From Candidatus Latescibacterota bacterium (GTDB lineage: Bacteria > Latescibacterota > UBA2968 > GCA-2709665), in contig OZ244744.1 in assembly GCA_965219455.1 (NCBI GenBank), positions 4,544,001-4,608,000 of the forward strand: 64,000 nucleotides of DNA, read 5' to 3'. This document shows, piece after piece, positions 14,008 through 62,763 of this stretch (positions are counted from its first letter, which is position 1; the number at the start of each line of letters is the position of its first letter). The notes under the pieces are model-generated. The model was not told the origin of the DNA. It worked only from the letters and a program-made list of their open reading frames with translations, and ran no database searches. The position numbers and the translations under genes were made by a program.

Positions 14008-14087
14008 CACGACAGGCTGCGGCTCCGGGGCATTCGCCCCTTCGCTCAACCCGCTGCGCGGGTTCGCAGCCTGCGAGAACGTTAACA
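14001..14087 (+). repeat. attC-like site
   Basis: CGCATAAC...caggctgcg/cgcagcctg...G|TTAACA at 14081. Confidence 0.88.
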
Positions 14088-14276
14088 GAAAGCACGCGCC
14101 AAAATCAGAACCAGCGGCCATCCTGGCCGCCAAGAAAACCTTTGATATGCTTCTGTTGCCTGTTGGATTTTTCTACAGCGAATTGGATATGTGGAGTTTC
14201 TGCGACCACGACTGAGATATTCCGCGATTCTTCCGTATGGGCAATAGTTAGCCACCAACCGCGTTGGGAACAGACC

Positions 14277-15449
14277 ATGGGCTCAAATCGGCTCCAGCCA
14301 ACAACCCGGAAGACCTTCGTCAGCGACCGACAAGATGGCCGCTTTATCGACACGGCGGGCTTCATACACGCGTTCATCAAATCCCACCGACCAAAGCTCG
14401 CGTTCGATCCGGATATGGATGCCCGCGAATTTCCTGCCTGGCGCGAACGGCTGCGCAAGAAGGTGCTCGAGTTGATGGCGTTTCCCGAAGTGGTCCGTCA
14501 ACCAGCGCCTAAACGCGTCGGCGTCGAGCAGCGTGCCGGATACCAACTCCAGCGTTGGGAGATATATCCCGAACTGCACTGCGTCGTACCCTTTCTGATG
14601 CTGGTCCCGGATGGCACGAGCGACCAGTCGCCCGCTCCGGCGGTCCTGTGTTTCCCGGGGTACAGCGGCAGCAAAGAAGGAATGGCCGGTGAGCGGGAAT
14701 TGAACGACCGCAAACTCGACTGGAGTGAAGAGAAGTGGCGCGACAACTGCATCGCCTTGCACTTCGTGCGCCAAGGAATGATCGCCGTGGCGGTTGACAA
14801 TCCCGCTCGTGCCGAAGCGGACAGTGCCCTTCGGGATCTTTCGGGAGTTTCGCTGTGCATGCTGTGGACAGGGCGCAACTATCTCGGCATTTCGGTCTTC
14901 CAGAAGACCCAGATCCTGCAGTGGCTGGCCCAATCGAGCATGGTAGACTCGAAGCGCATCGCAACATGTGGTCTATCGCTGGGTTCCGATCCGGCCGATA
15001 TCGTCGGGCTGCTCAATCCGGATCTGGTCGGAGCCGTCATCCATAACGATTTCCTGTGCGACTGGCGCGAACGAACGATTGCCCAGAATGCCTACGGCTC
15101 GACCCCTCACCACGTGGTTCCCGGAATGTATCGTTGGTTTGACGCTCCGGACATTCAAGCGGCACTGGCCCCGCGGCCTCTGCTCTACACAGAAGGTGGT
15201 CGCGCCCCTCATATCAGCAGGATCCGGGCCGCCTATAAAATGGCGGGGGCTCAGGACAACGTGAAGGTCTATCACTACAAGAAGTATGAGACCGCAGACG
15301 CTCGCCTCTACGACGACCAGCCGATCCCAGAAGGGCTGGCGGATGAAGAGTACTTCCTCTATGCCAATGTCGATGTGGCGGAACACCGCTTTCACCCCGA
15401 ACATGCTGTTCCTTGGCTGACGGAAGTTCTTATGCCGAAGACGGACTGA
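14277..15449 (+). CDS. Alpha/beta hydrolase (esterase-like)
   Basis: PAVLCFPG, RIATCGLSLG nucleophile elbow, APRPLL motifs. Confidence 0.8.
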   Translation: MGSNRLQPTTRKTFVSDRQDGRFIDTAGFIHAFIKSHRPKLAFDPDMDAREFPAWRERLRKKVLELMAFPEVVRQPAPKRVGVEQRAGYQLQRWEIYPELHCVVPFLMLVPDGTSDQSPAPAVLCFPGYSGSKEGMAGERELNDRKLDWSEEKWRDNCIALHFVRQGMIAVAVDNPARAEADSALRDLSGVSLCMLWTGRNYLGISVFQKTQILQWLAQSSMVDSKRIATCGLSLGSDPADIVGLLNPDLVGAVIHNDFLCDWRERTIAQNAYGSTPHHVVPGMYRWFDAPDIQAALAPRPLLYTEGGRAPHISRIRAAYKMAGAQDNVKVYHYKKYETADARLYDDQPIPEGLADEEYFLYANVDVAEHRFHPEHAVPWLTEVLMPKTD

Positions 15450-15466
15450 GAGCGGACAAAGTAGAA

Positions 15467-15521
15467 TGGCTAACAGGGCTTGCACCCGACTCGCTTCGCT
15501 CGTGGGAAGCCCTCGCTATAA
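15467..15521 (+). repeat. Short inner attC of a nested cassette
   Basis: TGGCTAAC complements GTTAGCCA at 14247; agggctt/aagccct arms; right end G|CT. Confidence 0.65.
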
Positions 15522-15692
15522 TTGAAGAGAGAAGTCAGAGAGACGATGTAGTTTGCGTTATTTTCGGGGACTGATTTCAGAACTGGCGTAAGGCAAATGG
15601 CAACATGTTTTGTTCAAGAGCTTGATGTAAAAACCAGAAAAGCACCCCGATGCGTGCCTCCTGGCAGGCCCACCCCACCCCGGCGCGTGCCA

Positions 15693-15821
15693 TCTGTTAA
15701 CAGCGCACTCCCGGCTCGCTTCGCTCGACCAAAATGGCCGTGACTGATTCTCTGACTGATTGTAAAACCACTGATTCCTTCCCCAGGCACGGCCACTTCG
15801 GGAGCGCGCGAACCGTTAAAT
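15693..15821 (+). repeat. attC-like site
   Basis: TCTGTTAAC complements GTTAACAGA (14081); GTT at 15815; related to the site at 49937. Confidence 0.8.
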
Positions 15822-15958
15822 GCAAGCAGCGCAGGAATCTTGAAAACCCAAACCGTGTAAGAATCGCGATGGCGGTAGATGTCCGCGCTACGCGAGTTCA
15901 CGTTCGGGCATCGTTACAGGTTCGCTCCGGAGGGATTGCGAGGGTCACAGATACAGGC

Positions 15959-16984: not shown

Positions 16985-17041
16985 GCACTGGCTCTATAGA
17001 TTCCGCCCGCCGATGGATCTGCTACCGAGGGCGCGCTGCCA

Positions 17042-17142
17042 GCATTTAACATGACGGGCTGAGGCTCCGGCGCTTTCGCGCCTCCGACCCAACCTGCCTA
17101 CGCTGCGCTTCGGCAGGTTCGCAGCCCGCTTGAACGTTAGGG
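17042..17142 (+). repeat. attC-like site
   Basis: GCATTTAAC complements GTTAAATGC (15815); GTT at 17136. Confidence 0.88.
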
Positions 17143-21350: not shown

Positions 21351-21455
21351 GGCGCATAACACGCCCACTTGCGCTGCGGCGCATACGCGCCTTGGCCTTC
21401 GGCAACCCACCTTCGCTACGCTTCGGTGGGTTCGCAAGTGGCGAGAACGATATAT
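21351..21455 (+). repeat. attC-like site followed by a G|AT core
   Basis: GGCGCATAAC complements GTTATGCGCC (20437); right core GATATATG at 21449. Confidence 0.85.
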
Positions 21456-21478
21456 GGAATGAGAAAGGAGACAATGGA

Positions 21479-22339
21479 ATGACCTTGGTCGCGGCTTGGC
21501 GAGAGGGCGATACCCTTCATCTCGCCTCGGACTCACGCATTTCTTTCTCCCAACAAGGAAGTGCAGATATTTGCCTCAAGGTCCACCCTCTACCGCTTCG
21601 AATCTTCCTTCCTAAGCCCTTGAACAAGCCTTTCCACGATGGAAGCATAGGCGTCGGCTTGGTTGGGAGTTTCGTATCGACCGTCTCGGTTAAGGATCCA
21701 TTAATGACTCTGCTTGGCAATCTACAGTTCGCGCCGGGCTATATGAATCCATCTCTTGAAGAAGTAGCAAAGGTAGTAGCTTACCTACTCAAGAATGTCG
21801 GAGGTGAAGTTTGCAAGGTGATGGCTTACCGCGGCACAGGTCAAGTAATCCTAGTTGGCAAGTGCCCACAGAAACGAAAGCAGCAGTGCTTCTCAATCTC
21901 ACTTAAACCTATCGATAATCACCTCGAAGCGGAAATCAAGCAGGAACTTAAGGACGTTGAGGTGTCCTTCTTTGGTGATCGAGAGGCTAAGGAAGCTGCA
22001 ACTAAAAAGCTTGGCCGCCAAGCCCCCACGAGTATAAATGTCTTGAGAGCTCTGAAGTCGATATGCTTGGACCAGTGCTATAGTAGTGTCGGCGGTCCAA
22101 TCCAATATGGCCGGACCGAAAACCACAGGTTTTTTCAGAAGGGAGTGCGAGACTATTTCCCCGATACAGAGGGGAAGAAGATTCGGGTAGGTTTCTTCAT
22201 CGGCGGTATTGAGCTCTATTCGCAGAAGTACATGCGCGACGGTACTCCTCTCCATCTTCATACAACATCAATTTGCCCTTTCGAGAAGGAGATCTCAGAT
22301 TACTTGAAGTCAGGCGAGTTTGCGCTCATTACTGACTGA
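21479..22339 (+). CDS. Hypothetical protein, possible Ntn-hydrolase/proteasome-like fold
   Basis: N-terminal M-T-L-V...ASDSR and later SVGG.I. Confidence 0.5.
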   Translation: MTLVAAWREGDTLHLASDSRISFSQQGSADICLKVHPLPLRIFLPKPLNKPFHDGSIGVGLVGSFVSTVSVKDPLMTLLGNLQFAPGYMNPSLEEVAKVVAYLLKNVGGEVCKVMAYRGTGQVILVGKCPQKRKQQCFSISLKPIDNHLEAEIKQELKDVEVSFFGDREAKEAATKKLGRQAPTSINVLRALKSICLDQCYSSVGGPIQYGRTENHRFFQKGVRDYFPDTEGKKIRVGFFIGGIELYSQKYMRDGTPLHLHTTSICPFEKEISDYLKSGEFALITD

Positions 22340-22391
22340 ATGTAGTTGTGTTGATCCGTGTTGCTTCGCACAGGAGCGCAGAATCCCACTT

Positions 22392-22483
22392 CATATATCA
22401 CATCCATTTACGCTACGGGGCATTCGCCCCTTGGCCTTCGGCACCCCGCATACGCGGGGTCGTAAATGGTGAGAACGTTAAAC
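22392..22483 (+). repeat. attC-like site with ATC-type R'' box
   Basis: CATATATC complements GATATATG (21449); ccatttacg/cgtaaatgg arms; GTT at 22477. Confidence 0.85.
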
Positions 22484-28303: not shown

Positions 28304-28828
28304 ATTGGTCCAGGAACTCACCTGCTTTGGTCGGCGAAGTCTGGCCTTCGCTCTGGAGCCGTTGTAAGACCTGGAGACTTCCAGACCCATTTAATGCGTC
28401 AGATCCTGATCGAAGTCCAAACGGACTCTCTCGCGGTAACGGTTCCAAATGCCGCCGAGACAGGTCGTGTCATGATGGAACTCGCGTGGGAGACTGTTCG
28501 TCTACGGGAATTTCCCCATAGGCCAAGTCGGTTTGATTGCCTGTTTCTCTGGCCGGAAGCGAGTGCTGCCAGACGATTCGACTCCCATAGGGAAGCGTGC
28601 GAACTGTATGATATCGAGATTCTTGAATGCGCGCGCGCGTTCGCTGCTGATATGAACCTGATAAGTTACTTCAAAGAGTTTGAAACCCTTGCATCGATGT
28701 TCGAGAGAGCGCGCCGATACTGGCAGAACGAGAGGAAGGACGAGAACAGGGAGATTCTGTTGGAAGGTACAATTCAGATTCAGTGTCGATCCGTTGGTTT
28801 CGACTGCGTATCGAATATATCAACATAG
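28304..28828 (+). pseudogene. DUF2441-like protein, 5'-truncated duplicate of 55908-56414
   Basis: Near-identical DNA to about 55920-56400; no start codon upstream in frame before the homology begins. Confidence 0.65.
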
Positions 28829-32254: not shown

Positions 32255-32345
32255 CATATATCACAGCAATTCCCACTGCGCGCCATTCGGCGCTTGGCCA
32301 AACGGCACAGCCCTTCGGGCTGTCGGGAATTGTCTAACGTTAACA
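32255..32345 (+). repeat. attC-like site with ATC-type R'' box
   Basis: CATATATC...caattccc/gggaattg...GTT at 32339. Confidence 0.75.
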
Positions 32346-32550
32346 GAAAGCACGCGCCAAAGTCAAAACAGGCGGCCGTCCCGGCCGCCAGGAAAATCTT
32401 TGAACCACTTCTCTTGCTTGATGGATTTGTTCTACAGCGAATGAGCTATACGGAGTTTTTTCGACCAGATTTTTCCGTAAAGGCAAGAGTTGGCGGCGAG
32501 AAGACCAATATGAGTGCACAATAAGTGAAAGGCTACCCGGTGACGGTCAA

Positions 32551-33688: not shown

Positions 33689-35146
33689 ATGACGGACGAG
33701 AAAGCGGCCTTCCTATTCATCGACAATACGTTAATCGAGAATCTCGACGGCGTCGTGCAAGGGGTCGTACCCGCAAAGAAGGCTTCGCAACAGCCGCTGA
33801 TTGAGAAGGATCGGGCCTGGGAAGAGGAGTGGCTGATCGGCGGCTACGTCAACGTCCTGTACGACGACGACGAAGATATCTTCAAGATGTGGTACGGCGT
33901 GGGCCGAAGATTGAGCGAAGCGCGTGGCGACGTGGCGGACGGACTGGCCTACGCCGTGTCCCAAGACGGGATCCACTGGGAAAAACCCGTCCTCAACCTC
34001 GTCGAGGACAGCGGCAGCAAAGAGAATAACCTGGTCTTTCCCTTTTTGAGGTGGGGGGCCGGGACAGGCGTCATGAAAGACCCCATCGAAACAGACCCAG
34101 CCAAGCGCTACAAGATGCTCTTTATGTTCCAGAGCGGAGACATGATATTCGCCGGCATTGTCCAGCCGGTCTGTGTGGCGTATTCTGCCGACGGAATTCA
34201 TTGGAACGTGCCCCAACGCTGGCTCAACCCGGTCATTCCACAGGGCTCGGATACCCACCTGGTCGCATATTGGGATGCAAAAATTCACCGCTACGTCGTT
34301 TATCTGCGGGGCCGGCCTAACGTGCGCATCATTTGCATGGCCGAGAGCGATGATTTCGAAAACTGGACCCCGCGCAAGATCATCGTCGCACCCGATGAGC
34401 ACGATCCCCCGCAGGACCAGGAGTTTTACGGCATGAGTTCGCTGGCGTATCGCGACTTTCGTATCGGCTTCCTGTCCGTGTTTCACACGCTCCACGAGGG
34501 GTGGATCGCCCGAAACCGGATCGAAGATTGGATGCCCGAATGGATGAACCGGATGGACATTCAGTTGACCTACTCGAAGAACGGCCGGACCTGGCATCGG
34601 GCGGGCAACCGTGAACCCATTCTGGAATGTGGCCCCCGCGGTAGCCACGACAGTGGAAATGTCTATCCGTCTCATGCCCCCTTTGTCCGTGGCGACGAGA
34701 TCTGGGTCTATCACAGCTGCTCAAACGAATTGCACGGCGAGGGGACGCGCTACGGCGAAGAATCCCGGCGGGGAATCAATCTGGCAAAGATCGAAAAGGA
34801 TCGGCTGGTCTGTCTGAAGACGGAGGCGCAGGGGGTCGTGACCACGGTCCCGCTGAGTATCGAGCCCAATGCATTGTGGATCAACGCCGATGCGACCGGC
34901 GGGTCACTGCGAGTGGAGATAGTCGATCCGTTTGACCGGGTCGTGCCGGGTTTTGGCAAAGAAGACTGCAGACTCTTCTCAGCGAATGAAACAGAATACC
35001 GGGTACAATGGAAAAGCGATCCGCAAGGCGCAGTCGGGGATAAAGAGGGTGGGCTCGAAGAGAAGATGGTCTCACAGGCACGCGGGGGGGTCAAGGTCAA
35101 AGTGTACCTTGACCGCGCCAAGCTATTTGCTCTTTATGCGTCCTAA
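33689..35146 (+). CDS. Five-bladed beta-propeller glycoside hydrolase-like protein
   Basis: LFIDN, FKMWY, YAVSQDGIHWEKP, SADGIHW, GDEIWVY motifs. Confidence 0.7.
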   Translation: MTDEKAAFLFIDNTLIENLDGVVQGVVPAKKASQQPLIEKDRAWEEEWLIGGYVNVLYDDDEDIFKMWYGVGRRLSEARGDVADGLAYAVSQDGIHWEKPVLNLVEDSGSKENNLVFPFLRWGAGTGVMKDPIETDPAKRYKMLFMFQSGDMIFAGIVQPVCVAYSADGIHWNVPQRWLNPVIPQGSDTHLVAYWDAKIHRYVVYLRGRPNVRIICMAESDDFENWTPRKIIVAPDEHDPPQDQEFYGMSSLAYRDFRIGFLSVFHTLHEGWIARNRIEDWMPEWMNRMDIQLTYSKNGRTWHRAGNREPILECGPRGSHDSGNVYPSHAPFVRGDEIWVYHSCSNELHGEGTRYGEESRRGINLAKIEKDRLVCLKTEAQGVVTTVPLSIEPNALWINADATGGSLRVEIVDPFDRVVPGFGKEDCRLFSANETEYRVQWKSDPQGAVGDKEGGLEEKMVSQARGGVKVKVYLDRAKLFALYAS

Positions 35147-35267
35147 AGCCATTTGGGGGTTCAACAATCATCCACGGCGAATAAACTGCATCAAGTTTTT
35201 CGGCTACGAATGGAATATGCCGAACTTTCTACGCAGAATCACAAGTCAGGCCGTACGGAGGTCCACT

Positions 35268-36395
35268 ATGAAGTGGGAACTGCTGCATCCGGACCAGGAG
35301 CAAGCCGAGGATGTACCCTGTAAGCGGGCGGCCTTCGGCGGGATGTTGAGCTACAATGGATGCGTCTACCTGTTCGGGGGGATAAAAGTGATGTACGGCC
35401 GGCCGAAAGGGCCTGGAGATCTTTCCGTCCAGGGCTCATTGAACGACCTGTGGCGCTACGACCCGGGTCGAGGCCGGTGGACGCGGTTGGAAGACCACGA
35501 TGGGCGCATCGGGTTCAGTCCGTCCGATACCAGACCGTGTACTCGGAAGCTCACGACCTGGCTGCCCGTGAACGGCAGGCTCTATCTTTTTGGAGGGTCC
35601 TCGGTGCGGGGCCCCGGCAAAGGGGCGATCAAGCTGAACGATCTCTGGGCCTACGATCCGAAGACAGCCTCGTGGGAGCTGATAGAGCCCGACGACGGGC
35701 GCGCATCAGGAATAACGGCGGATGGGCATCGTCCCGCCGGGTCGGGCGGGATGGGGGCGGCCGTTCTGGGTGATTACCTGTACCTGATGGGGGGACATGG
35801 CGCGATGACGCACGCACAGCTGTGGACCTACAAGGCGCCGGCCGGGAAATGGGAGCACCTGGGGCCTGCGTCGAATGGGCGCAACGGTTGGCCGCCGAAA
35901 CGATACTGTCCCGTGCTGGCCGGCTGGAACGGCAGGCTCTACCTGTGGGGCGGTCGGGACAGTCAGGGTCGAGCGCCGGAGTTCTACAACGATCTGTGGG
36001 AATACGATCCCGACGGAGGCGCCTGGACCTGCATTCAGGAGAACCGGGCAGATGACGTTGCACGGCCTTCCCCTCGGTACGGGCTGGGATACGCTGTGAT
36101 CGGAGATCACCTGTATCTGTTCGGAGGATTTGCAGGAGGGGAAGGGGAGCACCCCCAGCTGAACGATCTGTGGCAGTACGATCTTCGTGCCGGCCGGTGG
36201 GACTGTCTATATCCACACAACGGTGCGGAGGATTGCTCTGCTGGCGCCGAACGTCCCGGTGTCAGGCGAATCCCCGTTATGACAGTGGGGGGCGAGTCCG
36301 TCTATCTCTTCGGGGGGCTGGACCTGGCTACCGGGCCGCACGGGGACGGGCCGCTGGCGGCGTACAACGATTTCTGGCGCGGAACACCGGCCTGA
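35268..36395 (+). CDS. Kelch-repeat protein, copy 1
   Basis: Repeated LYLFGG...NDLW.YD....W units. Confidence 0.9.
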   Translation: MKWELLHPDQEQAEDVPCKRAAFGGMLSYNGCVYLFGGIKVMYGRPKGPGDLSVQGSLNDLWRYDPGRGRWTRLEDHDGRIGFSPSDTRPCTRKLTTWLPVNGRLYLFGGSSVRGPGKGAIKLNDLWAYDPKTASWELIEPDDGRASGITADGHRPAGSGGMGAAVLGDYLYLMGGHGAMTHAQLWTYKAPAGKWEHLGPASNGRNGWPPKRYCPVLAGWNGRLYLWGGRDSQGRAPEFYNDLWEYDPDGGAWTCIQENRADDVARPSPRYGLGYAVIGDHLYLFGGFAGGEGEHPQLNDLWQYDLRAGRWDCLYPHNGAEDCSAGAERPGVRRIPVMTVGGESVYLFGGLDLATGPHGDGPLAAYNDFWRGTPA

Positions 36396-39697: not shown

Positions 39698-39827
39698 GAA
39701 ATCGCCCCCACCACCCCCAGAAGAACCGTGATTGCGTGCAAAAATAGCCCCACCCTCCCCACCATCAACACTCGTTCCTATACTTGGATTTATGCGACAG
39801 CGGAGAAATCCCGAGTCAGATCTTCCC

Positions 39828-43108: not shown

Positions 43109-44146
43109 GCATGCGCCCGTTGCGGGACTTATCTGCGGGATTCGTCGCTTCGCCGACTCGGGGAATCGACGTCCCCAGGAACCGGCTAATCACAACGTGA
43201 TTCACCCAATGCGCCGGAAGGCCCGATCCGCCGCGACCCCTTGGCAACGGACGCCACAGGCCCTGATCCCCGGCCGGCGTTTCCTCCCTGGCACATTGAC
43301 ATCAGGAGACCCCTTACGTATCGTTCAGAGAGATATGACACGTAAGGGAGACTTGACCATTTGTTGCCATCCTGGTCCTGTCTTCTCGCGTTTCCTCGGG
43401 TCTCTGATCTGCCCCTGCGAGCGCATCATGCTGTTGCTGGCATTGGGCGCCCGTCAATGTCAGTGGTAGCCTGGGCAGAAGTTGGGTTGGGGCATTACAA
43501 TTCTTGGCTCCAATGTCCTTGGTGCTTCTATCTATTTCTTATTTCGAAGACCTAAGCGGATTCGGGAACGCAATCAGGAATCACTTGAGCCGTAGCGAAC
43601 ATATCGAGCCTCCCATACACTTCGTGCGTGGTGCTCCGAAGTGACGGCCTCGGACATCGACGTAGAAGATCTGTATTGTCGGGCCATGAGCGCCGTCGCA
43701 AAATAAAGCGCTCCTGGACCCACCTCAACACCACTACCCACACATTGGCCTGTGTCACACCGGTTGCTTGATTTTTACACCTATCGAAGTGGCGAAAAGG
43801 CGACGGAGAAAATTGAATATCCGGCGGAATGCACCTTCGTCTTGTCCAAAAGCTCACTTGCTAATGACTTGACTATGCCGAAGGCTGCGCCCCTACCCAG
43901 AGGGCATGCCGCTAAGTTCGGGATCACTTTGCTCGCGTGCCGCTTGGAGGGGCCACTGCCCTTGCTGGTCCTGACGTGAAGGTTTTGGAGAGATGTCGTG
44001 ATCTCTTCGGTATTGCCTAGGGCTAAACCATTTTTTCGAATCGGATCTCAGGTCATCCCAATCAGATGAGAGGAACCAAACCTATGTCGCACGCTGTATG
44101 TACGCGCCGATCTCCAGGACCGAGAGGGGCGCCACCCCGATGCGAC

Positions 44147-44301
44147 TTCTGCTAACACGGGCTATTCGCTCCGGTCGCTTCGCTCCCTCCGGCCCTTCGG
44201 GCACATTCCCCTTTGTCACGTCGCTTGCTGAGAGACGCAAGCGCCGCGCCAATCCGGCTTCGCCGGACCGGGGAACGTCGTATAGCCCGGGAACGTTATC
44301 T
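44147..44301 (+). repeat. attC-like site (long type)
   Basis: cgggctat/atagcccg arms; GTT at 44295. Confidence 0.85.
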
Positions 44302-44330
44302 GCAATTGCCCCAGAGATCGCGATGTCTAC

Positions 44331-44870: not shown

Positions 44871-44928
44871 TAAAAAACACTGAAGACGACTTCGAGATTC
44901 TTAACGCATCGCATTAGCTAGGGACAAC

Positions 44929-45019
44929 TGCAGCTAACACGTCGGGCTGCGGCTCCGGCCCTTTCGGGCCTCCGCAGCAACCTGCTGGCGCAGGTTCGCA
45001 GCCCGCGGGAACGTTATAA
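44929..45019 (+). repeat. attC-like site
   Basis: TGCAGCTAAC approximates GTTATCTGCA (44295); GTT at 45013. Confidence 0.85.
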
Positions 45020-45209
45020 GCCATGCCAGCGTTCCTCCAAAAGCAGGCGGCCGTCCTGGCCGCCCAAGAGAATCTCACTACGTTCTTCAGTAGCGGAAAT
45101 TTCGCTTGAAGAACTTAATTAAGATATGTAGATTTATAGCAGGTCTATAGGTGACCAATCGCAGCAGAATTGAACCGTCTTTACCATATTAAAAACAATA
45201 TGATATATA

Positions 45210-45974: not shown

Positions 45975-46058
45975 ACATAACACGTCCGTGCCCGGCTACG
46001 GGCCATACGGCCCTTCGCGCAACCGCTTCGCGGTTCGGGCACGGCGAAAACGTTAGCC
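45975..46058 (+). repeat. attC-like site
   Basis: ACATAAC...ccgtgcccg/cgggcacgg...GTT at 46052. Confidence 0.88.
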
Positions 46059-46169
46059 GCAATTAATAGAGCATTGATTTCCATACGTAGTTAGACAGCA
46101 CGAGACAGCCTGTCCGCACTTTTACAGTCCAATTGCGACGCAATTCTTACAGCAACACAAGAGGATATA

Positions 46170-47090
46170 ATGAGTATTGCTACTGAACCCTGCCCTGGGC
46201 AGCTACGCCACCACTCTTACGCCGTGGTGCGCGGTTTGTTCGACGCAGCGACGACAAAACGGCTGCGCGAGATCTGTGAGCGAGTGCTGGAACAGTGGCG
46301 GCGCGCTCCTCGCTGTGACAATCCACCGGTGGGGCCCCAGGCCAATTACATGAGGCACCTGAACGACCCGGAATATCACCGCGATCACCCCGACGATCTC
46401 GCCTTTCTGCTCAATGCCATGGGGTCGCCCCAAGTTGTCGAATCGCTGAGCGCAGCCTTGGATGAAGAATTCCTCTTCGCCTTGAGCAGTCTCTACTGTA
46501 ATCCGACCGGAGAAAGCCAGGACGGATTTTGGCACAAGGACAAGATCGGTGCAGAAGCAGACGTATCCCGGAGACCGGAGACCGGAGCCGGGTTGCAGAT
46601 GCAAATCGCATTGGTCCCTACCGACGATCTCGAATTGGTGCCGGGGTCTCACCTGCGTGACTACTCCCCCGAAGAGCACGCGATCTGCGTCGCCGATGAT
46701 GGGATCCACAACCGCTCGAACGATATGCCTGGCGCCGTTCGTCTCCACCAGGAACCCGGTGACGCGGTGCTGTTTACCCAGTTGTGCATTCATCGGGGCC
46801 GCTATCACACCGACAAGCTCAGGCGCTCGTTGATGATCTCGGTAAAAAAACGGGCCGCCGCAGAGTTCACGATGCGCCAGCGGGGGCTGAACTACGCCAG
46901 TGACCAGCCATGGTTTTTGCTGCCGCAATACTTCGATGGCGTCAGTGAGGATGCGCGAGCGTTCTTCCAGGAATTCGTCGGCTTCTACGCCCCGCATTGG
47001 CGCGCCCGGCTGACGGAGGTGTTGAAGTACTCGAGTCTGGTACAAAGCCTGGTGGAAGCCGGCGAGCCGTACCCGTTTTTTGGTGAATGA
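46170..47090 (+). CDS. PhyH-family dioxygenase, copy 2
   Basis: Identical translation to 6947-7867. Confidence 0.85.
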   Translation: MSIATEPCPGQLRHHSYAVVRGLFDAATTKRLREICERVLEQWRRAPRCDNPPVGPQANYMRHLNDPEYHRDHPDDLAFLLNAMGSPQVVESLSAALDEEFLFALSSLYCNPTGESQDGFWHKDKIGAEADVSRRPETGAGLQMQIALVPTDDLELVPGSHLRDYSPEEHAICVADDGIHNRSNDMPGAVRLHQEPGDAVLFTQLCIHRGRYHTDKLRRSLMISVKKRAAAEFTMRQRGLNYASDQPWFLLPQYFDGVSEDARAFFQEFVGFYAPHWRARLTEVLKYSSLVQSLVEAGEPYPFFGE

Positions 47091-47168
47091 GAAGTCTGTC
47101 TGAATGAGTTAGCGGCTACATTTTGATACATAAGGCCCCGACAATGAACGGATACGAATTAATCACGA

Positions 47169-47270
47169 CGGCTAACACCGGCTTTACGCTTCGGGGCATC
47201 CGCCCCTCGGCCCTGCGGGCACATGGGCCTTTGGGACTGGCCCACGTCGTAAAGCCAAGAACCGTTAACC
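47169..47270 (+). repeat. attC-like site (copy of 7946)
   Basis: Same sequence as the 7946 site; GTT at 47264. Confidence 0.85.
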
Positions 47271-47447
47271 GAAAGCGGCGCAAGTGTTCCCAGCCACATT
47301 ACCCCAAAAAATCGCGCACAAAAGGCAACAACCACCTTATTTTGAAGTCTTCCACGGCGAATAAACTGTATCAAGTTTTTCGGCTACGAATGGAATATGC
47401 CGAACTTTCTCCGCAGAATCACAAGTCAGGCCGTGCGGAGGTCCACT

Positions 47448-48575
47448 ATGAAGTGGGAACTGCTGCATCCGGACCAGGAGCAAGCCGAGGATGTACCCTG
47501 TAGGCGGGCGGCCTTCGGCGGGATGTTGAGCTACAATGGATGCGTCTACCTGTTCGGGGGGATAAAAGTGATGTACGGCCGGCCGAAAGGGCCTGGAGAT
47601 CTTTCCGTCCAGGGCTCATTGAACGACCTGTGGCGCTACGACCCGGATCGAGGCCGGTGGACGCGGTTGGAAGACCACGATGGGCGCATCGGGTTCAGAC
47701 CGTCCGATACCAGACCGTGTACCCGGAAGCTCACGACCTGGCTGCCCGTGAACGGCAGGCTTTATCTTTTTGGCGGGTCCTCAGTGCGGGGCCCCGGCAA
47801 GAGGGAGATCAAGCTGAACGATCTCTGGGCCTACGATCCGAAGACAGCCTCGTGGGAGCTGTTAGAGCCCGACGACGGGCGGGCATCAGGAATAACGGCG
47901 GATGGGCATCGTCCCGCCGGTTCGGGCGGGATGGGGGCGGCCGTTCTGGGTGATTACCTGTATCTGATGGGGGGACATGGCGCGATGACGCACGCACAGC
48001 TGTGGACCTACAAGGCGCCGGCCGGGAAATGGGAGCACCTGGGGCCTGCATCGAATGGACGCAACGGTTGGCCGCCGAAACGATACTGTCCCGTGCTGGC
48101 CGGCTGGAACGGCAGGCTCTACCTGTGGGGCGGTCGGGACAGTCAGGGTCGAGCGCCGGAGTTCTACAACGATCTGTGGGAATACGATCCCGACGGAGGC
48201 GCCTGGACCTGCATTCAGGAGAACCGGTCGGATGATGTTGCACGGCCTTCCCCTCGGTACGGGCTGGGATACGCTGTGATCGGAGATCACCTGTATCTGT
48301 TCGGAGGATTTGCAGGAGGGGAAGGGGAGCACCCCCAGCTGAACGATCTGTGGCAGTACGATCTTCGTGCCGGCCGGTGGGACTGTCTATATCCACACAA
48401 CGGTGCGGAGGATTACTCTGCTGGCGCCGAACGTCCCGGTGTCAGGCGAATCCCCGTTATGACAGTGGGGGGCGAGTCCGTCTATCTCTTCGGGGGGCTG
48501 GATCTGGCTACCGGGCCGCACGGGGACGGGCCGCTGGCGGCGTACAACGATTTCTGGCACGGAACACCGGCCTGA
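47448..48575 (+). CDS. Kelch-repeat protein, copy 2
   Basis: Near-identical to 35268-36395. Confidence 0.9.
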   Translation: MKWELLHPDQEQAEDVPCRRAAFGGMLSYNGCVYLFGGIKVMYGRPKGPGDLSVQGSLNDLWRYDPDRGRWTRLEDHDGRIGFRPSDTRPCTRKLTTWLPVNGRLYLFGGSSVRGPGKREIKLNDLWAYDPKTASWELLEPDDGRASGITADGHRPAGSGGMGAAVLGDYLYLMGGHGAMTHAQLWTYKAPAGKWEHLGPASNGRNGWPPKRYCPVLAGWNGRLYLWGGRDSQGRAPEFYNDLWEYDPDGGAWTCIQENRSDDVARPSPRYGLGYAVIGDHLYLFGGFAGGEGEHPQLNDLWQYDLRAGRWDCLYPHNGAEDYSAGAERPGVRRIPVMTVGGESVYLFGGLDLATGPHGDGPLAAYNDFWHGTPA

Positions 48576-48941: not shown

Positions 48942-49032
48942 TGAAGAGACCAAAATCACAGTATCGGCCTGCAAATCAAGATAACAAGGTTTGTTATCAA
49001 ACACCCGAATTAACAACCGCATGGAGGACCCA

Positions 49033-49230
49033 ATGAGGTACAAAGTTGCCCTTCATAAATCCGACGAAGGCTTTAGCGTTTCGGTGCCTGGCTTGCCAGG
49101 TTGTTGGTCACAAGGAAACACGGAAGATGAGGCGGTTGCAAACATCGAAACAGCAATTCGTGAATATCTTACTGTCGTTGACGATCTGTTAGATGGCGCG
49201 GAGATACGAGAGATCGAGTTGACGGTATAG
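49033..49230 (+). CDS. hicB: HicB-family antitoxin
   Basis: EGFSVSVPGLPGCWSQG.TE.EA..NI..AI.EYL. Confidence 0.88.
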   Translation: MRYKVALHKSDEGFSVSVPGLPGCWSQGNTEDEAVANIETAIREYLTVVDDLLDGAEIREIELTV

Positions 49231-49936: not shown

Positions 49937-50062
49937 CGTGTAACACATGGCCCCCGGCTCGCCTCGCTCGACCAAAAGAGCCGTGAGCGAAGAGTTGGCT
50001 GACTGCAAAAACACTGATTTCTTGTCTGATGCACGGCTCCTTTGGGGCCATCACCGTTATGC
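49937..50062 (+). repeat. attC-like site
   Basis: CGTGTAAC..atggcccc/ggggccat..GTT at 50056; same family as 15693. Confidence 0.82.
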
Positions 50063-51121
50063 GAAAGTGAGTTCGATTTGTTTAGAGCGGATCTCTTCCA
50101 GGCGCACCTGGAAAACTGGGAACTCATTCTGCAGGAGCGAACCGTTGAAGCCATCGAACGGATCGCGTCTGTTCCTGGCGTTGCGGGTGTGATTCTTGGG
50201 GGTAGCGTTGGGCGAGGAATGGCGTGGCCTATATCAGATATAGACCTCATCTACATTACTACCAGGGCGGCGGACAACAGTCTTCCAAAAGCAGTGGACG
50301 AGCTTGCGTTGTCCATCACAAGGGAGTGGGCTCGGGACACGTGGCCGACGTCTGTTGACGCAGGCCGACTCCATTTTACAGCCGATGAGGCAGACGACTT
50401 GATCAAAGGCAAGCGTCACTTGGATAAGCTGATGGCCAGTGAGAGGACTTTCCATGCGACCGACAAGAGCCACCTCGGTCAATCAGTTCACGCGTCTGAG
50501 GATTGCGATACTCCTGCATTTGTTGTGCTACTTTCCGATGGTCGATTTGACCCAACGGTTGTCCGGGCACGCCAAATCGAGCGAGTCAGACGTGTAACCA
50601 GGCTCGCCCATCGAGTGAAGTCACATCTGCAGGCAGGTCGTCTGATTGAGGCAGGGATCTCTATACAGGAACTCGCGCGTGTTATAATCCCATATCTGAA
50701 GGAAAGGTGGGGGCATGGAGATCGGTCCTTTGGAAGGGTTTTCACTCGTTTTTGCGTTCTGGCTCACGAGCACCAGGAAGAAGGAATTGCGAATCGCCTC
50801 ATTCGACTGTTCTCTCTTACGGCGGATGAGGTAGAAGCAAGGTACGCCAAGGCTCCCGCTAATGTTGAGGAGCGGCACATCACATCGTATCTATCCCGCC
50901 TGGCCGTGGGCGAGGAGATCACGGAGCTCGATGACAAACGCGATGTCCTGTATGCCTATACGTGGTATGCAGTTCGTACTGGTGAAACTGGTTCGTGGCT
51001 CCTCAATGAGGATCTGCACAAGTCTCAACTCAAGTTGTCACTGGATCAAACAGCATCCATATGGGCCGAGGTGGTCTCGAAGGAGCCGGATTGCGTATCC
51101 AGCGAACTCACCTTCGCATAA
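50057..51121 (+). CDS. Nucleotidyltransferase-domain protein (start uncertain)
   Basis: GGSVGRG..WP.SDIDL; stop lies in the R'' box. Confidence 0.7.
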   Translation, partial: LCESEFDLFRADLFQAHLENWELILQERTVEAIERIASVPGVAGVILGGSVGRGMAWPISDIDLIYITTRAADNSLPKAVDELALSITREWARDTWPTSVDAGRLHFTADEADDLIKGKRHLDKLMASERTFHATDKSHLGQSVHASEDCDTPAFVVLLSDGRFDPTVVRARQIERVRRVTRLAHRVKSHLQAGRLIEAGISIQELARVIIPYLKERWGHGDRSFGRVFTRFCVLAHEHQEEGIANRLIRLFSLTADEVEARYAKAPANVEERHITSYLSRLAVGEEITELDDKRDVLYAYTWYAVRTGETGSWLLNEDLHKSQLKLSLDQTASIWAEVVSKEPDCVSSELTFA

Positions 51122-51199
51122 CACGTCCGTGCCCGGCTTCGGGCCATTCGGCCATTCGCGCAACCGCTACGCGGTTCGGGCACGGAGAAAACGTCGCAC
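51113..51199 (+). repeat. attC-like site followed by a G|TC core
   Basis: TTCGCATAAC complements the 50056 end; GTCGCAC at 51193. Confidence 0.85.
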
Positions 51200-51256
51200 G
51201 AAAAATGAGGGCCTGGTCAATCAATTGGCCGGCACTGTTCACAGATAGCGTGAAAT

Positions 51257-52024
51257 ATGGGTTTAGACGAGCATGTTGCTACATGGAAAGGTGAAGAGGA
51301 ACAACCCTTCTTGGGATGGGACTTTTCCTATCTGGATGGCAGGATGTTAGAAGGGCAAGCTCCATGGTCGTATTCTTCACGGGCTGCCGAGCTCATGCGT
51401 CGATGCTCGTCTGTCATTGACCTGGGAACAGGTGATGGTGAGAGGTTCCTGAACTTACAGGAATTTTGGCCAAAAGTGGTTGTGGCAACGGAGGAATATG
51501 CACCTAACCTCAAGTTGGCAACAGAACGTCTCGTTCCATTGGGAGCGAAAGTTGTAGATGTTCGATTGACTGATTGCGATTCAGTGCCTCTTTTCGATCG
51601 CAAGTTTGATCTCGTTCTAAATCGCCATTCCGCCTTCAATCCCAATGAAGTTGCCCGTATTCTCACGCCTGGCGGTACATTCCTGACACAGCAAGTTCAC
51701 GGGTTATGGGCCTATGACTTACTGGCAGCGTTTGACGCTAAACCGCAATGGCCCGGATCCACCCTTGAAAGGTATGTGGCTCAATTGAGAACGACGGGCC
51801 TGACTATTCTCAATGCCGAAGACTGGTCTGGCCGGCTGGCTTTCGCCGACGTGGGCGCCGTGGTCTATTACTTGAAGGCTGTTCCCTGGCTGGTTCCTGG
51901 GTTTTCAGTCGAAACGCACGTGGAGTTCCTGTTAAGGCTGCAACGCCGTCTTGACAGCGGCGATGGGTTGGCTTTCGCAGCGAGGAAATTCCTGATTGAA
52001 GGGCAAAAGGAGGGGCCAGCTTGA
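51257..52024 (+). CDS. Class I SAM-dependent methyltransferase
   Basis: F.GWDFSYL, IDLGTGDGE, FDLVLNRH, L.PGG.FLTQQV motifs. Confidence 0.88.
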   Translation: MGLDEHVATWKGEEEQPFLGWDFSYLDGRMLEGQAPWSYSSRAAELMRRCSSVIDLGTGDGERFLNLQEFWPKVVVATEEYAPNLKLATERLVPLGAKVVDVRLTDCDSVPLFDRKFDLVLNRHSAFNPNEVARILTPGGTFLTQQVHGLWAYDLLAAFDAKPQWPGSTLERYVAQLRTTGLTILNAEDWSGRLAFADVGAVVYYLKAVPWLVPGFSVETHVEFLLRLQRRLDSGDGLAFAARKFLIEGQKEGPA

Positions 52025-52053
52025 AAGGCGCCAAATGGTATCGATTGTGATCG

Positions 52054-52171
52054 TTTTCGTGTGACAGCGCGGTGTTGTGCTGCGGCGCGGAGCCTGTCCT
52101 GAGCCTGCCGAAGGGCGCCCTGGCCTTCGGCAACCCGCTTCGCTGGTTCGGCAATCGGTGAGACGTCACAC
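52054..52171 (+). repeat. attC-like site with GAC-type R'' box
   Basis: TTTTCGTGTGAC approximates GTCGCACGAAAA; right core GTC at 52165. Confidence 0.7.
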
Positions 52172-52958: not shown

Positions 52959-53047
52959 GCGTGTATCAGCAGCACGTGCGGCTCGGGCCATCCCGGCCCT
53001 CACCCAACTTGCCTTCGGCAGGTTCGCAAGTGCGCGGAACGTAATCG
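52959..53047 (+). repeat. attC-like site (ATC-type R'', GTA right core)
   Basis: gcacgtgcg/cgcaagtgc arms; GTAATCG at 53041. Confidence 0.7.
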
Positions 53048-54781: not shown

Positions 54782-54909
54782 CATTAACACTGAACGAAAG
54801 AGGCTGGCAAGGGCGACTTCCGCGAACAAGCAGGACTTCGGCTCCGGCGCATTCGAACGTCCGACCTGACTTGCTTGCGGAAAGTTCGCAGCCCGAGCGG
54901 GCGTTTTCG
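54782..54909 (+). repeat. Degenerate attC-like site
   Basis: CATTAAC...gttcgcagcccg...G|TTTTCG at 54903. Confidence 0.6.
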
Positions 54910-54940
54910 GAAATAGACTCATTCGAGGGAGTTACCAACG

Positions 54941-55708: not shown

Positions 55709-55718
55709 TAGAGTCTAC

Positions 55719-55810
55719 TTCCGATAACAGCACGTTTTGCGCTACGGCGCTGATCGCGCCTTGGCCTTCGGCAACCGCTTCGCGGTTCCCAAACCGGCAT
55801 AACGTTACAC
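55719..55810 (+). repeat. attC-like site
   Basis: TTCCGATAAC; ggccttcggcaacc..ggttc; GTT at 55804. Confidence 0.82.
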
Positions 55811-55907: not shown

Positions 55908-56414
55908 ATGCCTCGTGACATTGGTCCAGGAACTCACCTGTTTTGGTCGGCGAAGTCCGGCCTTCATTCAGGAGCCGTTGTAAGACCTGGGGACTTCCAA
56001 ACCCGTTTAATGCGTCAGGTCCTGATCGAAGTCCAAACGGACTCTCTCGCGGTAACGGTTCCAGATGCCGCCGAGACAGGTCGTGTCATGATGGAACTCG
56101 CGTGGGAGACTGTTCGTCTACGGGAATTTCCCCATAGGCCAAGTCGGTTTGACTGCCTCTTTCTCTGGCCGGAAGCGAGTGCTGCCAGACGATTCGACTC
56201 CCATAGGGAAGCGTGCGAACTGTATGACGTCGAGATTCTTGAATGCTCACGCGCGTTCGCTGCTGATATGAACCTGATAAGTTACTTCGAAGAATTCGAA
56301 ACCCTTCAATCGATGTTCGAGCGGGCGCGACGATACTGGCAGAACGAGAGAAAGGACGAGCACGGGGAGATCCTGTTGGAAGGTACAATTCGGATTCAGG
56401 GGACAATCTTGTAG
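55908..56414 (+). CDS. DUF2441-like protein
   Basis: E.VR..EFP.RPSR..CLF...Y.VE...F.ADM...A.RYW...E.L..G pattern. Confidence 0.6.
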   Translation: MPRDIGPGTHLFWSAKSGLHSGAVVRPGDFQTRLMRQVLIEVQTDSLAVTVPDAAETGRVMMELAWETVRLREFPHRPSRFDCLFLWPEASAARRFDSHREACELYDVEILECSRAFAADMNLISYFEEFETLQSMFERARRYWQNERKDEHGEILLEGTIRIQGTIL

Positions 56415-59527: not shown

Positions 59528-59659
59528 GGACGGTAGCTGATTAATTGCATTCCTGAACATCTTCGGCTACAAGCTCCAACGTAACATGCTTTCGAACGTT
59601 CGCAGATCCTCCGACCAGATACGAATTACCGTTGCTGTTTTGTAATACCGTAGTTATAG
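59528..59659 (+). other. attI-like element, copy 4 (G|TT at 59653)
   Basis: gcattcctgaacat..gctacaagct..cgaacgttcgcagatc..taccgta GTTATAG; complements CTATAAC at 60370. Confidence 0.75.
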
Positions 59660-59669
59660 GAAATGCCAA

Positions 59670-60369: not shown

Positions 60370-60452
60370 CTATAACGCGTCCGTGCCCGGCTGCGGGACA
60401 TTCGGCCCTTCGCGCAACCACCGTGCGGATCGGGCACGGCGAGACGTTAGCT
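60370..60452 (+). repeat. attC-like site
   Basis: ccgtgcccg/cgggcacgg arms; GTT at 60446. Confidence 0.85.
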
Positions 60453-60519
60453 GAGAATAGCCGCGAAGACATTCTCTTCCTCTTTTTCATTGCAGGCAAT
60501 GCGTGAATCGGAGACCAGT

Positions 60520-61572
60520 ATGATATTTACCAGACGTATATGGCCCATGTTGGCGGTATTATTTATGGCATCGGACGCCAAGGCCAATGGCTTCGCCATG
60601 GGTCATCGCCATGTTCCAATAGTGGTGGACGTAGACGTAACCCTTCACACCGGGGAAACCGTGCGCTTGCGAGCTGGTCAGCCCATCTACGTTAACGACG
60701 AATTCCGGACGTATTATCGCGAACAACCTGTCGAGATCCCTTCAAGTGCCCTGCCGGCATCACTCGATGGATACCGTCTTTATAGACAAAGGAGCTTGAA
60801 ACGGAGCGCCAGCCTACTTTCGTTGGAGGCCTCAGAGGAGGCAAATCCGATTGCGAGGACATGGCTATACCTCTTGGCCGGGCACTCATATGTAATAGGT
60901 GGCGGCTTTACCGACAAGAGAGCAAATGAGGCTTACCAAAGGGCAACCGAGCCGCCATTGAACGTGTACAGTCCATACGGTCTATTCTTCAACGCAAAGC
61001 TTCTCGCAGGCAATAGGGACTATCGAAGGGCGAAGCGGGTGCTGCGGCGAATCAGGGAGAAGTTTGGTGAAGACGCAATTGATGCAGTTGGATCGACAAA
61101 GAGTGTCATGCTATTCACGACCTATACTCATGGATCTGCCATAACCGAGGGATATTTTAGGGGATTTCGCGGTCTCAGTTGGTCGATCCAAATTTTGGAT
61201 AGACTGCTTAAGGCACAGCAGAAATATCAAATGGGCGATCAAAGGGTTGAGTCTGAGGATTTGTGGAAGTACTTCCCTCCGAAAGCATCCTTGGGAGTCC
61301 CAAAGCCTGATGAGGCGCAGGAGTTGCTCCGACGTATTGTCACAGAATACCATGCGTCGGACGTGGCACCCGTGGCCTACTTCCGGCTCCTGACTTACTA
61401 CGAGGCTCCTTATGAATTCAATGGGGACGACATTGCCAGATACCGATTCGAATTTTGCCAAATGACGAAGTTCCTATCGAAGTATCCAGACAGCAAAATA
61501 AGCGATGATGCGCGGAAGAGACTGGCCAAGGCGGGGAAGTTCTTGAAGGACAGAGGAATCCTGCCAAGGTAG
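60520..61572 (+). CDS. Secreted hypothetical protein with TPR-like helices
   Basis: Signal-peptide-like start; F..KYP.S.....A C-terminal motif. Confidence 0.55.
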   Translation: MIFTRRIWPMLAVLFMASDAKANGFAMGHRHVPIVVDVDVTLHTGETVRLRAGQPIYVNDEFRTYYREQPVEIPSSALPASLDGYRLYRQRSLKRSASLLSLEASEEANPIARTWLYLLAGHSYVIGGGFTDKRANEAYQRATEPPLNVYSPYGLFFNAKLLAGNRDYRRAKRVLRRIREKFGEDAIDAVGSTKSVMLFTTYTHGSAITEGYFRGFRGLSWSIQILDRLLKAQQKYQMGDQRVESEDLWKYFPPKASLGVPKPDEAQELLRRIVTEYHASDVAPVAYFRLLTYYEAPYEFNGDDIARYRFEFCQMTKFLSKYPDSKISDDARKRLAKAGKFLKDRGILPR

Positions 61573-61600
61573 TCGATACGTATCACCCGGGCGGCAACTC

Positions 61601-61687
61601 CAGCTTTCACGACGGGCTTCGGCTCCGGCGTATTCGCGCCTTCGCCAATCCTGCTTCGCAGGTCCGCGGCCTGCGAGGACGATATAT
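61601..61687 (+). repeat. Degenerate attC-like site followed by a G|AT core
   Basis: Resembles the 14001 site; GATATAT at 61681. Confidence 0.7.
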
Positions 61688-61722
61688 AAAATGGGAAGAG
61701 AGAATCAACATAACTTGAGGTA

Positions 61723-62625
61723 GTGACGATGAATGACCAGTTCAGGCTAAACTGCGGGCTGTTACGCTTGTTTGACGAGTTTGACTTGGTTCCAGATGAG
61801 TTGGCGCCTGGCTTCCAATATGAACTCTCACATCCTGAACTCGAGCGTCTGCGCGAAGCATATAGACTTGATCAGGTTGCAGGAGGTGGAGACGAATGGT
61901 CCAGGGTCCTGAACCTAATGCAGTGGATGTCAGAAGGCGTATGCCACAGAGGCGACATTACCAAATCGTTGCCCGAAGTCTGTAAATCCCTGCCCATGAA
62001 CGCTTCGGAACTTCTCAGATATTCGTTCGGCAAAGGTAAGGACTATGGCATCAACTGCTACATGCTGTCTATCGTGCTGACAGAGGCCTGCCTATCTCTG
62101 GGATTGCAGAGCCGAATAGTGTCTCTGAATCCATTGAATCCATACGACTATGACAATCATTTGGTTACGGTGGTTTGGTGTACTTCTCGCTCGAAGTGGG
62201 TGATGGTCGACCCCTCGTACAATGCATATCTATGTGACTCTGAAGGACTGATCCTGAGCCCATGGGAGACCAGGGACCGACTATGCCGACACAAGACCAT
62301 CTTCTGCAACGACGAGCTGAGTTACAATGGAGCCAGGTACAACCCAGAAGACTATCTGACGTACATGGCGAAGAACTTGCTCTACATGCACTCCCCATGT
62401 TTTAACGGATTCGGAAGCGTTACTTCAGGTAAGACGTGGCTCACGCTGGCCCCGAAGCACCTGGACGTTTGCAAGCGAGAGACATACAACATGAAGTGGC
62501 GTGAGGAGGCCGAGAGCGGGAACTGGGAGTACGAAGAACTTCGTAGTAGTCTCGAGAAGCGAAGGCTGGCGGGAGGCCACGCGTACACGTCATCTGTCGC
62601 GTCTTTTGCGCAAGCGCCGAACTGA
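61723..62625 (+). CDS. Transglutaminase-like domain protein
   Basis: Cys-His-Asp triad candidates INCY, DNHLV, WVMVDPS.N. Confidence 0.78.
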   Translation: MTMNDQFRLNCGLLRLFDEFDLVPDELAPGFQYELSHPELERLREAYRLDQVAGGGDEWSRVLNLMQWMSEGVCHRGDITKSLPEVCKSLPMNASELLRYSFGKGKDYGINCYMLSIVLTEACLSLGLQSRIVSLNPLNPYDYDNHLVTVVWCTSRSKWVMVDPSYNAYLCDSEGLILSPWETRDRLCRHKTIFCNDELSYNGARYNPEDYLTYMAKNLLYMHSPCFNGFGSVTSGKTWLTLAPKHLDVCKRETYNMKWREEAESGNWEYEELRSSLEKRRLAGGHAYTSSVASFAQAPN

Positions 62626-62666
62626 GCAATACACCGGCAGAGAATTGCCCGAGCGAAAATTCCCAC

Positions 62667-62763
62667 TTTATATATCACGTCCATTTGCGCTGCACGGCAT
62701 ACGGTGCCTGGCGCTTGCGCGCACCCCGCATGCACGGGGTCGCAAATGGTGAGGACTTTAGAG
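62667..62763 (+). repeat. attC-like site with ATC-type R'' box
   Basis: TTTATATATC complements GATATATAAA (61681); ccatttgcg/cgcaaatgg arms; right G mutated. Confidence 0.8.

Follow-up and report, generated by a model that had tools for sequence, protein, structure and literature searches.

Cassette-specific pairing of cassette ends beyond the R box in an integron-like array of a Candidatus Latescibacterota bacterium

We analyzed a stretch of 64,000 nucleotides (nt) from the genome of a Candidatus Latescibacterota bacterium (assembly GCA_965219455.1, contig OZ244744.1, positions 4,544,001 to 4,608,000 of the forward strand), called the window below, all coordinates being positions within it. 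Most of it is taken up by an integron-like array of gene cassettes separated by attC-like hairpins. Our main finding is that the two ends of many cassettes are complementary to each other well beyond the 7-nt R box: the arms are split at the crossover G|TT, pair only in the circular form of the cassette, and share a conserved two-part layout with one wobble pair on the bottom strand. They are probably the two halves of an outer stem of the attC hairpin. We describe the array first, then the pairing and its occurrence in other phyla, and finally weigh what the arms may do.

The array and its attC-like sites

Head-to-tail cassettes occupy the + strand from about 6.7 kb to the right end of the window, with attC-like hairpins between them. 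The sites were located by scanning for AAC...GTT with a paired inner stem (L-stem duplex scans) and then by reading the intergenic DNA by eye; 33 attC sites (a01 to a33; 6739-63471, + strand), which share one orientation, were tabulated by eye together with three attI-like junctions. An attC site was taken to be an imperfect palindrome of about 57-150 nt with R'' AAC and R' GTT ends. R'' ends with AAC in 27 of the 33 sites and R' begins with GTT in 26, the remainder being co-varying or degenerate variants, and site lengths range from 76 to 157 nt. An inner L''/L' stem is present: the bases that follow AAC and those that precede GTT form a duplex of -8 to -18 kcal/mol. In a general view, predicted folds have an asymmetric internal loop and a one-base bulge between the R and L stems. 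In their R''/R' ends, L stem and G|TT crossover, the units correspond to attC sites and gene cassettes. A search restricted to RYYYAAC...GTTRRRY returned three hairpins only; a covariance model was abandoned when RNAalifold found no common structure in 13 attC sites aligned with MAFFT, and a search of the window with Rfam at gathering thresholds yielded zero matches.

Three copies of an attI-like element, about 115-130 bp each, lie inside the array (13168-13295, 39568-39691 and 59540-59653, all on the + strand). Read in the sequence as a repeated element, it has repeated ACATGTTCG-like motifs and an inverted repeat, ATTACCG...CGGTAAT, directly before the crossover, and it ends CCGTAG|TTA, the bases after the bar being the start of the next cassette. 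After each junction comes a cassette with an R'' of its own that matches the first bases of that cassette (for aI1/a05, at the first copy, the score is 14 over 18 nt), and for this reason we read the junctions as putative attI-like sites of decayed platforms.

Two of the three elements are preceded by decayed recombinase genes, which lie on the + strand, in the orientation of the cassettes. At 12697-13165, the SAM-like N-terminal domain of an IntI-like tyrosine recombinase (Pfam PF13495, E 2.7e-15) is joined out of frame to the C-terminal end; in three-frame translation this remnant is 86% identical, over the aligned part, to P0009, a full-length relative of 376 amino acids (aa). The second, at 39307-39564, is a C-terminal remnant of 86 residues (P0001), 83-86% identical to proteins of 214-376 aa. 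No remnant was recognised before the third element, and an intact integrase gene is absent from the 64-kb window, as judged from its open reading frames (ORFs) and from Pfam scans of the flanking ones. It looks as if several platforms had been fused or duplicated to give the array.

Cassette ends pair with their own attC

All 32 consecutive intervals were scored, failures included, by setting the 5' arm, from the G of G|TT onwards, against the reverse complement of the sequence ending at the interval's own R''. Over positions 8-20, own ends match on average at 6.19 of 13 positions, versus 4.04 for non-own pairs (n = 1156) and 3.48 for the array context (n = 33), in which the 3' arm of one attC is set against the start of the next cassette. 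None of 20,000 permutations reached the own mean; an earlier note on this DNA had named shuffled pairings as a control for the extensions, and own ends exceed them. With gaps allowed, the extension score of 19 of the 32 own pairs lies above the 95th percentile of non-own pairs, and the alignment covers at least 18 nt in 14 of the 32. The data support the conclusion that the arms belong to the cassette's own attC, and that their pairing is possible only in the excised circle.

Individual pairs, all on the + strand, illustrate the extent of the match. In the cassette at 14081-15815, the 5' arm (14081-14100) pairs at 18 of 20 positions with 15682-15701, which ends at R'' of a06, the mismatches falling at positions 10-11; the next 5' arm, 15815-15832, pairs with 17033-17050 (R'' of a07) at 16 of 18, again with mismatches at positions 10-11. 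The arm at 50056-50075 matches 51103-51122 (a25) at 19 of 20 positions, and that of cassette 10392-11246 (10392-10409) matches 11099-11116 (a04) at 17 of 18, position 11 being the sole mismatch in both. The 5' arm at 39691-39705, in the first cassette to follow an attI-like junction, likewise fails to pair at position 11 and matches 44142-44156 (a19) at 14 of 15. The arm at 44295-44312 pairs with 44921-44938 (a20) at 15 of 18, that at 54903-54920 with 55711-55728 (a29) at 16 of 18, and that at 61681-61696, whose R' is the non-canonical G|ATATAT, with 62661-62676 at 15 of 16. Five of these matches (18/20, 19/20, 16/18, 15/16 and 14/15) had been quoted in the earlier note and were reproduced exactly. 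The looser extensions that it listed at 22477, 25972 and 44295 are real as well, with 9, 10 and 9 matches among the 13 positions 8-20, as is the one at 17136, which aligns over 20 nt with a one-base bulge.

A conserved layout and co-varying R boxes

Positions 1-4 (GTTA) and 8 (G) are conserved in all sites of the window profile, so pairing there is possible in any context. Positions 5-7 are variable yet match within a cassette (0.69-0.75 versus 0.27-0.32 in non-own pairs), and positions 9-10 show partial own matching. At position 11 the own match drops to 0.03: A occupies it in 33 of 36 5' arms and G in 25 of 33 reverse-complemented 3' arms. With A in the 5' arm and C in the 3' arm, the top strand has an A.C mismatch and the bottom strand a T.G wobble. 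Own matching then stands at 0.75 at position 12 and falls to 0.38 at position 18, against a background of 0.24-0.41, and it is at background level from position 19 on. A GAAAG-like motif also recurs. Mismatches outside position 11 are also asymmetric, 24 being wobbles on the bottom strand versus 8 on the top strand (binomial p = 0.007), a count that takes in some misregistered, gapped cases. Few 3' arms overlap coding sequence, a05 and a25 being examples (in a25, the arm covers the last codons and the stop of ORF 50042-51121), and the arms are thus mostly dedicated non-coding DNA.

Unusual R boxes carry both halves of the change, G|ATATAT occurring with ATATATC twice and G|TCGCAC with GTGTGAC once, and this covariation within cassettes places the crossover directly after the first G. 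The cassette at 21449-22399 (a10/a11, + strand) starts G|ATATATG and has R'' CATATATC, with 7 of 7 R-box positions matching. In the cassette that starts at 61681, R'' of a32 is ATATATC and the triplet co-varies as GAT/ATC with the 5' arm. The cassette at 51193-52065 (a25/a26, + strand) has a GTC/GAC box, starting G|TCGCACGAAAA with R'' TTTTCGTGTGAC, and matches at 11 of its first 12 positions. Non-canonical triplets of the two types (GAT/ATC, GTC/GAC) are found at 21449/22393-22399, 61681/62670-62676, 32256-32262, 48935, 51193/52059-52065 and 52961-52967. Cassettes that carry them adjoin canonical sites in the array, which creates hybrid sites mismatched in the conserved triplet.

Folding of the circle and array forms

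Each cassette was circularised by script and its bottom strand folded with DNA parameters. The circle averages -34.1 kcal/mol, the array form -28.7, and sites given the arms of other cassettes -28.6. The circle thus exceeds the array form in stability by about 5.4 kcal/mol, and of the 32 cassettes 24 fold more stably as a circle (Wilcoxon p = 6e-5). Folding also favours the bottom strand over the top one, by 2.8 kcal/mol and in 27 of the 32. Four examples have 17-20 arm-to-arm pairs as circles and 0-17 in the array form: cassette 14081-15815 has 19 such pairs as a circle, the one starting at 44295 has 17 as a circle and 0 in the array, and the one starting at 50056 has 20 and 0, respectively. 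The earlier note had supposed that the attC stem is lengthened in the excised circle, and the computed stem is indeed longer and more stable there.

The same layout in arrays of other phyla

Homologues of the recombinase followed by attC-like arrays in the same orientation were found in Gemmatimonadaceae (L006), Ignavibacteriota (L008), Flavobacterium (L034 and L017) and Algibacter (L027). These five arrays, with clear repeated attC sites, were counted; the other 74 of 79 related loci were left out because in G+C-rich genomes the hairpin scan gave too much noise to define arrays. All five lie downstream of an IntI-like recombinase without the IntI-specific insertion, of which the window has remnants only.

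The five arrays hold 23 distinct cassettes, whose own pairs score 287 in sum, a value reached by none of 20,000 stratified draws (maximum 213); by array, mean own scores are 10.0-14.9 versus 3.7-6.6 for non-own pairs. The alignment covers at least 15 nt in 17 of the 23 cassettes and at least 18 nt in 9. Position 11 is A in all 28 distinct 5' arms, and in the 3' arms it is G in 20 of 27, the other 7 having a TCG variant with one extra base. The longest arms are those of L008, where pairing extends to positions 21-23. The layout is thus retained in several phyla (Gemmatimonadota, Ignavibacteriota and Bacteroidota), with arm sequences that differ from cassette to cassette. The L008 array also contains a cassette of about 200 bp plus attC in three copies (12579-12783, 12900-13104 and 14033-14237) with identical arms; cassettes of this size are too short for a normal gene.

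The recombinase family

P0009 matches the integron integrase model TIGR02249 with 213 bits, below the cut-off of 265, in two pieces between which model positions 176-234 are skipped. It is 34% identical to IntI1, and both have the C-terminal SPLDAL motif, but about 43 residues within IntI1 residues 181-245 are missing from it, and its N-terminus is longer by some 90. The best structural match of the model built for the family is VchIntIA (PDB 2A3V; E 1e-14, 33% identity), and a fold search with the whole recombinase model matched the recombinase core only. The closest homologue in a scan that covered one genome per species has 49% identity, so the recombinase has no close relative there.

The N-terminal domain, about 60-90 aa, is usual in the family, and the L034 ORF (584 aa) seems to contain at least two such stretches; the L008 recombinase of Ignavibacteriota (316 aa) is without it. 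Five of 11 family members give weak matches to the Pfam HARP domain (PF07443) in this region, under the curated cut-off and with a best E of 8.7e-4; P0009 itself reaches 13.4 bits against a cut-off of 25. When the 11 N-terminal domains are combined into a profile, the best PDB match is the HARP domain of SMARCAL1 (4O66; E 0.012), and the structural model places a small beta/alpha domain at residues 13-75 (predicted local distance difference test, pLDDT, about 77-87).

Other features of the array

A conserved G+C-rich hairpin, GCGGCC-A/G-TCC..GGCCGCC, is found in four cassettes about 25-35 nt downstream of the cassette start (8070-8090, 14116-14136, 32374-32394 and 45049-45069) and has no Rfam match; cassettes 14081 and 32339 have about 110 nt of leader in common. 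Within cassette 14081-15815, a short attC-like hairpin (15470-15525; GCTAAC...AAGCCC), in which no R' is recognisable, could be the remains of an attC. Duplicated cassettes or segments comprise 6841-8041 and 46052-47264, 34932-36395 and 47397-48575, and about 28400-28650 and 56020-56260; they include two 306-aa ORFs of the PhyH family, and the copy at 6841 is without 11 bases of the 5' arm present in the copy at 46052. Some cassettes carry small paired genes of toxin-antitoxin-like type (11374-11905 and 48991-49230). The first is a DUF4160 and DUF2442 pair by Pfam; the small ORF at 48991-49230 is presumably HicB-like, by the look of its translation alone, and a palindrome lies just upstream, at 48976-49000. 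Directly left of the array is a gene for a family B DNA polymerase (323-2449, - strand; Pfam PF00136 and PF03104). The sole named relative of a flanking gene is a protein of a Phycisphaeraceae bacterium, with 58% identity.

What the arms may do

We consider it probable that the inverted repeats together make up the outer stem of the cassette's own attC hairpin, one half at each end, in a longer, two-part form of the R-arm extension. Recombination cuts G|TT inside R', and one half, TT and about 17 bases, consequently travels at the 5' end of the cassette; the other half would stand directly before R'' at the 3' end, the two becoming adjacent only in the excised circle. The arms of tyrosine recombinase sites measure about 11-13 bp, and since the duplex up to about position 10-12 is of this size, it may be the arm to which the R'-cleaving subunit of the recombinase binds. 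The extra helix at positions 12-18 would stabilise folding of the bottom strand in the circle, and the wobble at position 11 would bias folding towards that strand. In the array, where the outer stem cannot form, a resident attC would be a poorer substrate than a free circle. Sites resident in the array, with pairing confined to positions 1-4 and 8, would be weaker substrates; capture would then be favoured over loss, and circles of two cassettes would be at a disadvantage. The proposal of the earlier note that a longer stem favours integration over excision is a plausible hypothesis.

Several points weigh against this reading. The extension is missing from 13 of the 32 window intervals, which hold several ORFs, are rearranged or contain degenerate attC sites; attC boundaries were set by eye, and degenerate sites may have been overlooked. 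The covariation runs across different cassettes and not along a lineage, and the conserved bases at position 11 could be sequence contacts, or irrelevant to pairing. All folding results are computations on naked DNA. Finally, the mean alignment score of class 1 integron cassettes, 10.1, is no lower than that of the window, 9.8, the latter including broken intervals.

The first alternative is that the arms are a relic, recording a founding hairpin or an ancestral attC and having no present function past the usual 9-12 nt. The gradual decay of complementarity from position 12 to 18 (0.75 to 0.38) and its loss in the 13 intervals would fit this, as would the fact that class 1 cassettes function with 8-12 nt. 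However, the pairing has a fixed end near position 18, and six arrays from four phyla, whose arm sequences differ throughout, share an almost invariant A/C combination at position 11; moreover, mostly non-coding arms would decay if they were neutral. We regard a pure relic as unlikely. As an account of how the arms arose, insertion of a gene into a pre-existing hairpin, the alternative put forward in the earlier note, may hold, but it accounts for neither the fixed length nor the A/C position that recur across phyla.

It also seems improbable to us that the outer helix or the wobble is a docking site for the HARP-like N-terminal domain, which would take the place of the IntI insertion that reads extrahelical bases. 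The architecture of P0009, short of about 43 residues within IntI1 181-245 and longer by about 90 at the N-terminus, would suit such a role, and so would the HARP matches in 5 of 11 members, the profile match to 4O66 (E 0.012) and the beta/alpha domain of the model. Against it, the HARP similarity is weak, the fold search matched the recombinase core only, and the L008 enzyme has no N-terminal domain at all although its array has the longest arms, which makes the link between the domain and the outer helix a weak one.

A role in RNA, in which pairing of the transcript ends would insulate the cassette or regulate translation, might be suggested by arms that flank the ORF and by the conserved G+C-rich leader hairpin of several cassettes. 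Yet the antisense strand is the favoured one: the sense strand has an A.C mismatch at position 11, wobbles lean to the antisense strand by 24 to 8, and folding is more stable for the bottom strand in 27 of 32 cases. In addition, Rfam has no match in the window. Such a role is accordingly very unlikely. Lastly, the idea that any 5' end pairs with any R'' flank, by chance or through an array-wide consensus, draws on the conserved positions 1-4 and 8 and the recurring GAAAG-like motif, because of which non-own pairs already match at 4.04 of 13 positions, but it is refuted by the shuffles (0 of 20,000 permutations in the window, 0 of 20,000 stratified draws in the related arrays) and can be set aside almost entirely.

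A wider proposal goes beyond the outer stem itself, and we offer it tentatively, with more doubt than confidence. The arrays may form a separate, unclassified integron-like branch, with an IntI-like recombinase that lacks the insertion and often has a HARP-like N-terminus, and with attI 3' of its gene. The outer stem would serve as a device for cassette identity and strand choice, since only a circle closed by its own ends forms the 18-bp stem with T.G at position 11; single-cassette circles would be preferred for re-insertion, multi-cassette circles and array sites would be disfavoured, and the wobble would replace the reading of extrahelical bases.

If the outer helix and the wobble are functional, they would show how a recombinase without the IntI-specific domain can recognise a folded attC. 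They would also give a simple physical reason for a free circle being a better substrate than an array site, which bears on the balance of capture and loss in large chromosomal arrays. The arms and the A/C at position 11 make up a sequence signature of cassette boundaries, which could help to recognise this family of arrays; as the integrase is without the IntI-specific insertion, such arrays would probably be called integrase-less clusters.

Comparison with known systems

Terminal inverted repeats of a transposon or of a miniature inverted-repeat transposable element (MITE) were considered as a source of the arms and rejected: the units lie head to tail with attC hairpins between them and share G|TT, and no direct duplications were seen at their ends.

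The closest known counterpart is the classical cassette, whose own 5' end is likewise complementary, beyond the 7-nt box, to the sequence before its own R'', in the circular form only and with a G|TT crossover. We compared 14 distinct cassettes from six plasmid loci of class 1 integrons, the one classical integron class compared; 16 pairs were reduced to 14 by dropping the repeat copies aadA1b and aadA2b, and two loci were left out, L080 having no usable class 1 array and L083 lacking the usual attI1 junction motif. Uninterrupted runs are 12 nt long in five cassettes, 11 in one, 8 in four and 7 in one, and in three further cassettes pairing resumes after one early mismatch and continues to position 10-12. 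Own matching in class 1 is 0.50-0.93 at positions 8-12, including 0.71 at position 11, and is at background from position 13 (0.14-0.43 versus 0.20-0.31). The window differs in that its pairing runs to about position 18 and includes a fixed A/C non-pair at position 11. The difference is one of length and layout, not of overall strength.

Extension past the R box is thus routine in class 1, and the premise of the earlier note that attC needs only R''/R' pairing was too narrow. In most cassettes, according to Bouvier et al. (2009; PMC2727003), self-pairing goes past the 7 nt of R'/R'' to 9-11 consecutive nucleotides, and in our 14 class 1 cassettes it goes to 8-12 nt. The earlier note had also allowed that comparable extensions might be routine in known arrays: this holds for the first 12 positions, as class 1 shows, and does not hold for positions 13-18. 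Known extensions end at about 9-12, whereas pairing in the window reaches position 18.

The position-11 wobble resembles, in part, the unpaired features of attC (extrahelical bases, central spacer and variable terminal structure), which reportedly set strand choice, as is said of the work of Bouvier in 2009 and of Nivina in 2016. Both are conserved departures from perfect pairing that make the bottom-strand hairpin unlike the top-strand one. The known features, however, lie inside, from the R box to the loop, and include a bulged base, whereas that of the window is a wobble pair and lies outside, 10 bases beyond the cleavage point.

With the integron integrases VchIntIA and IntI1, the recombinase family has its structure and the SPLDAL motif in common; it differs in lacking the IntI insertion and in its extra N-terminal domain. 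Unlike those of integron integrases, its gene is oriented as the cassettes are, and the attI-like site follows its 3' end. A complete integron has an adjacent intI with the IntI-specific additional domain, and the window holds remnants only, of a family whose full-length members are without that insertion. Cury and colleagues are said to have defined, in 2016, the cluster of attC sites lacking an integron integrase (CALIN). The window agrees with that definition, which asks for at least two attC sites and no integron integrase close by, in being a long array, of 33 attC sites, with no intact recombinase gene in 64 kb; unlike a CALIN, it has three attI-like junctions and two recombinase remnants inside the array, which looks like several decayed platforms joined and not like a detached array.

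In the literature searched, a limited collection, neither an 18-nt arm nor a wobble at position 11 nor an integrase with a HARP domain was found described; a targeted term search of Larouche and Roy (2011) and of a 2024 Sci Adv paper found nothing on pairing outside the R box. What is known is the shorter extension of the R arm, of which the longer arms described here, with their single fixed wobble pair, may represent a new variant.

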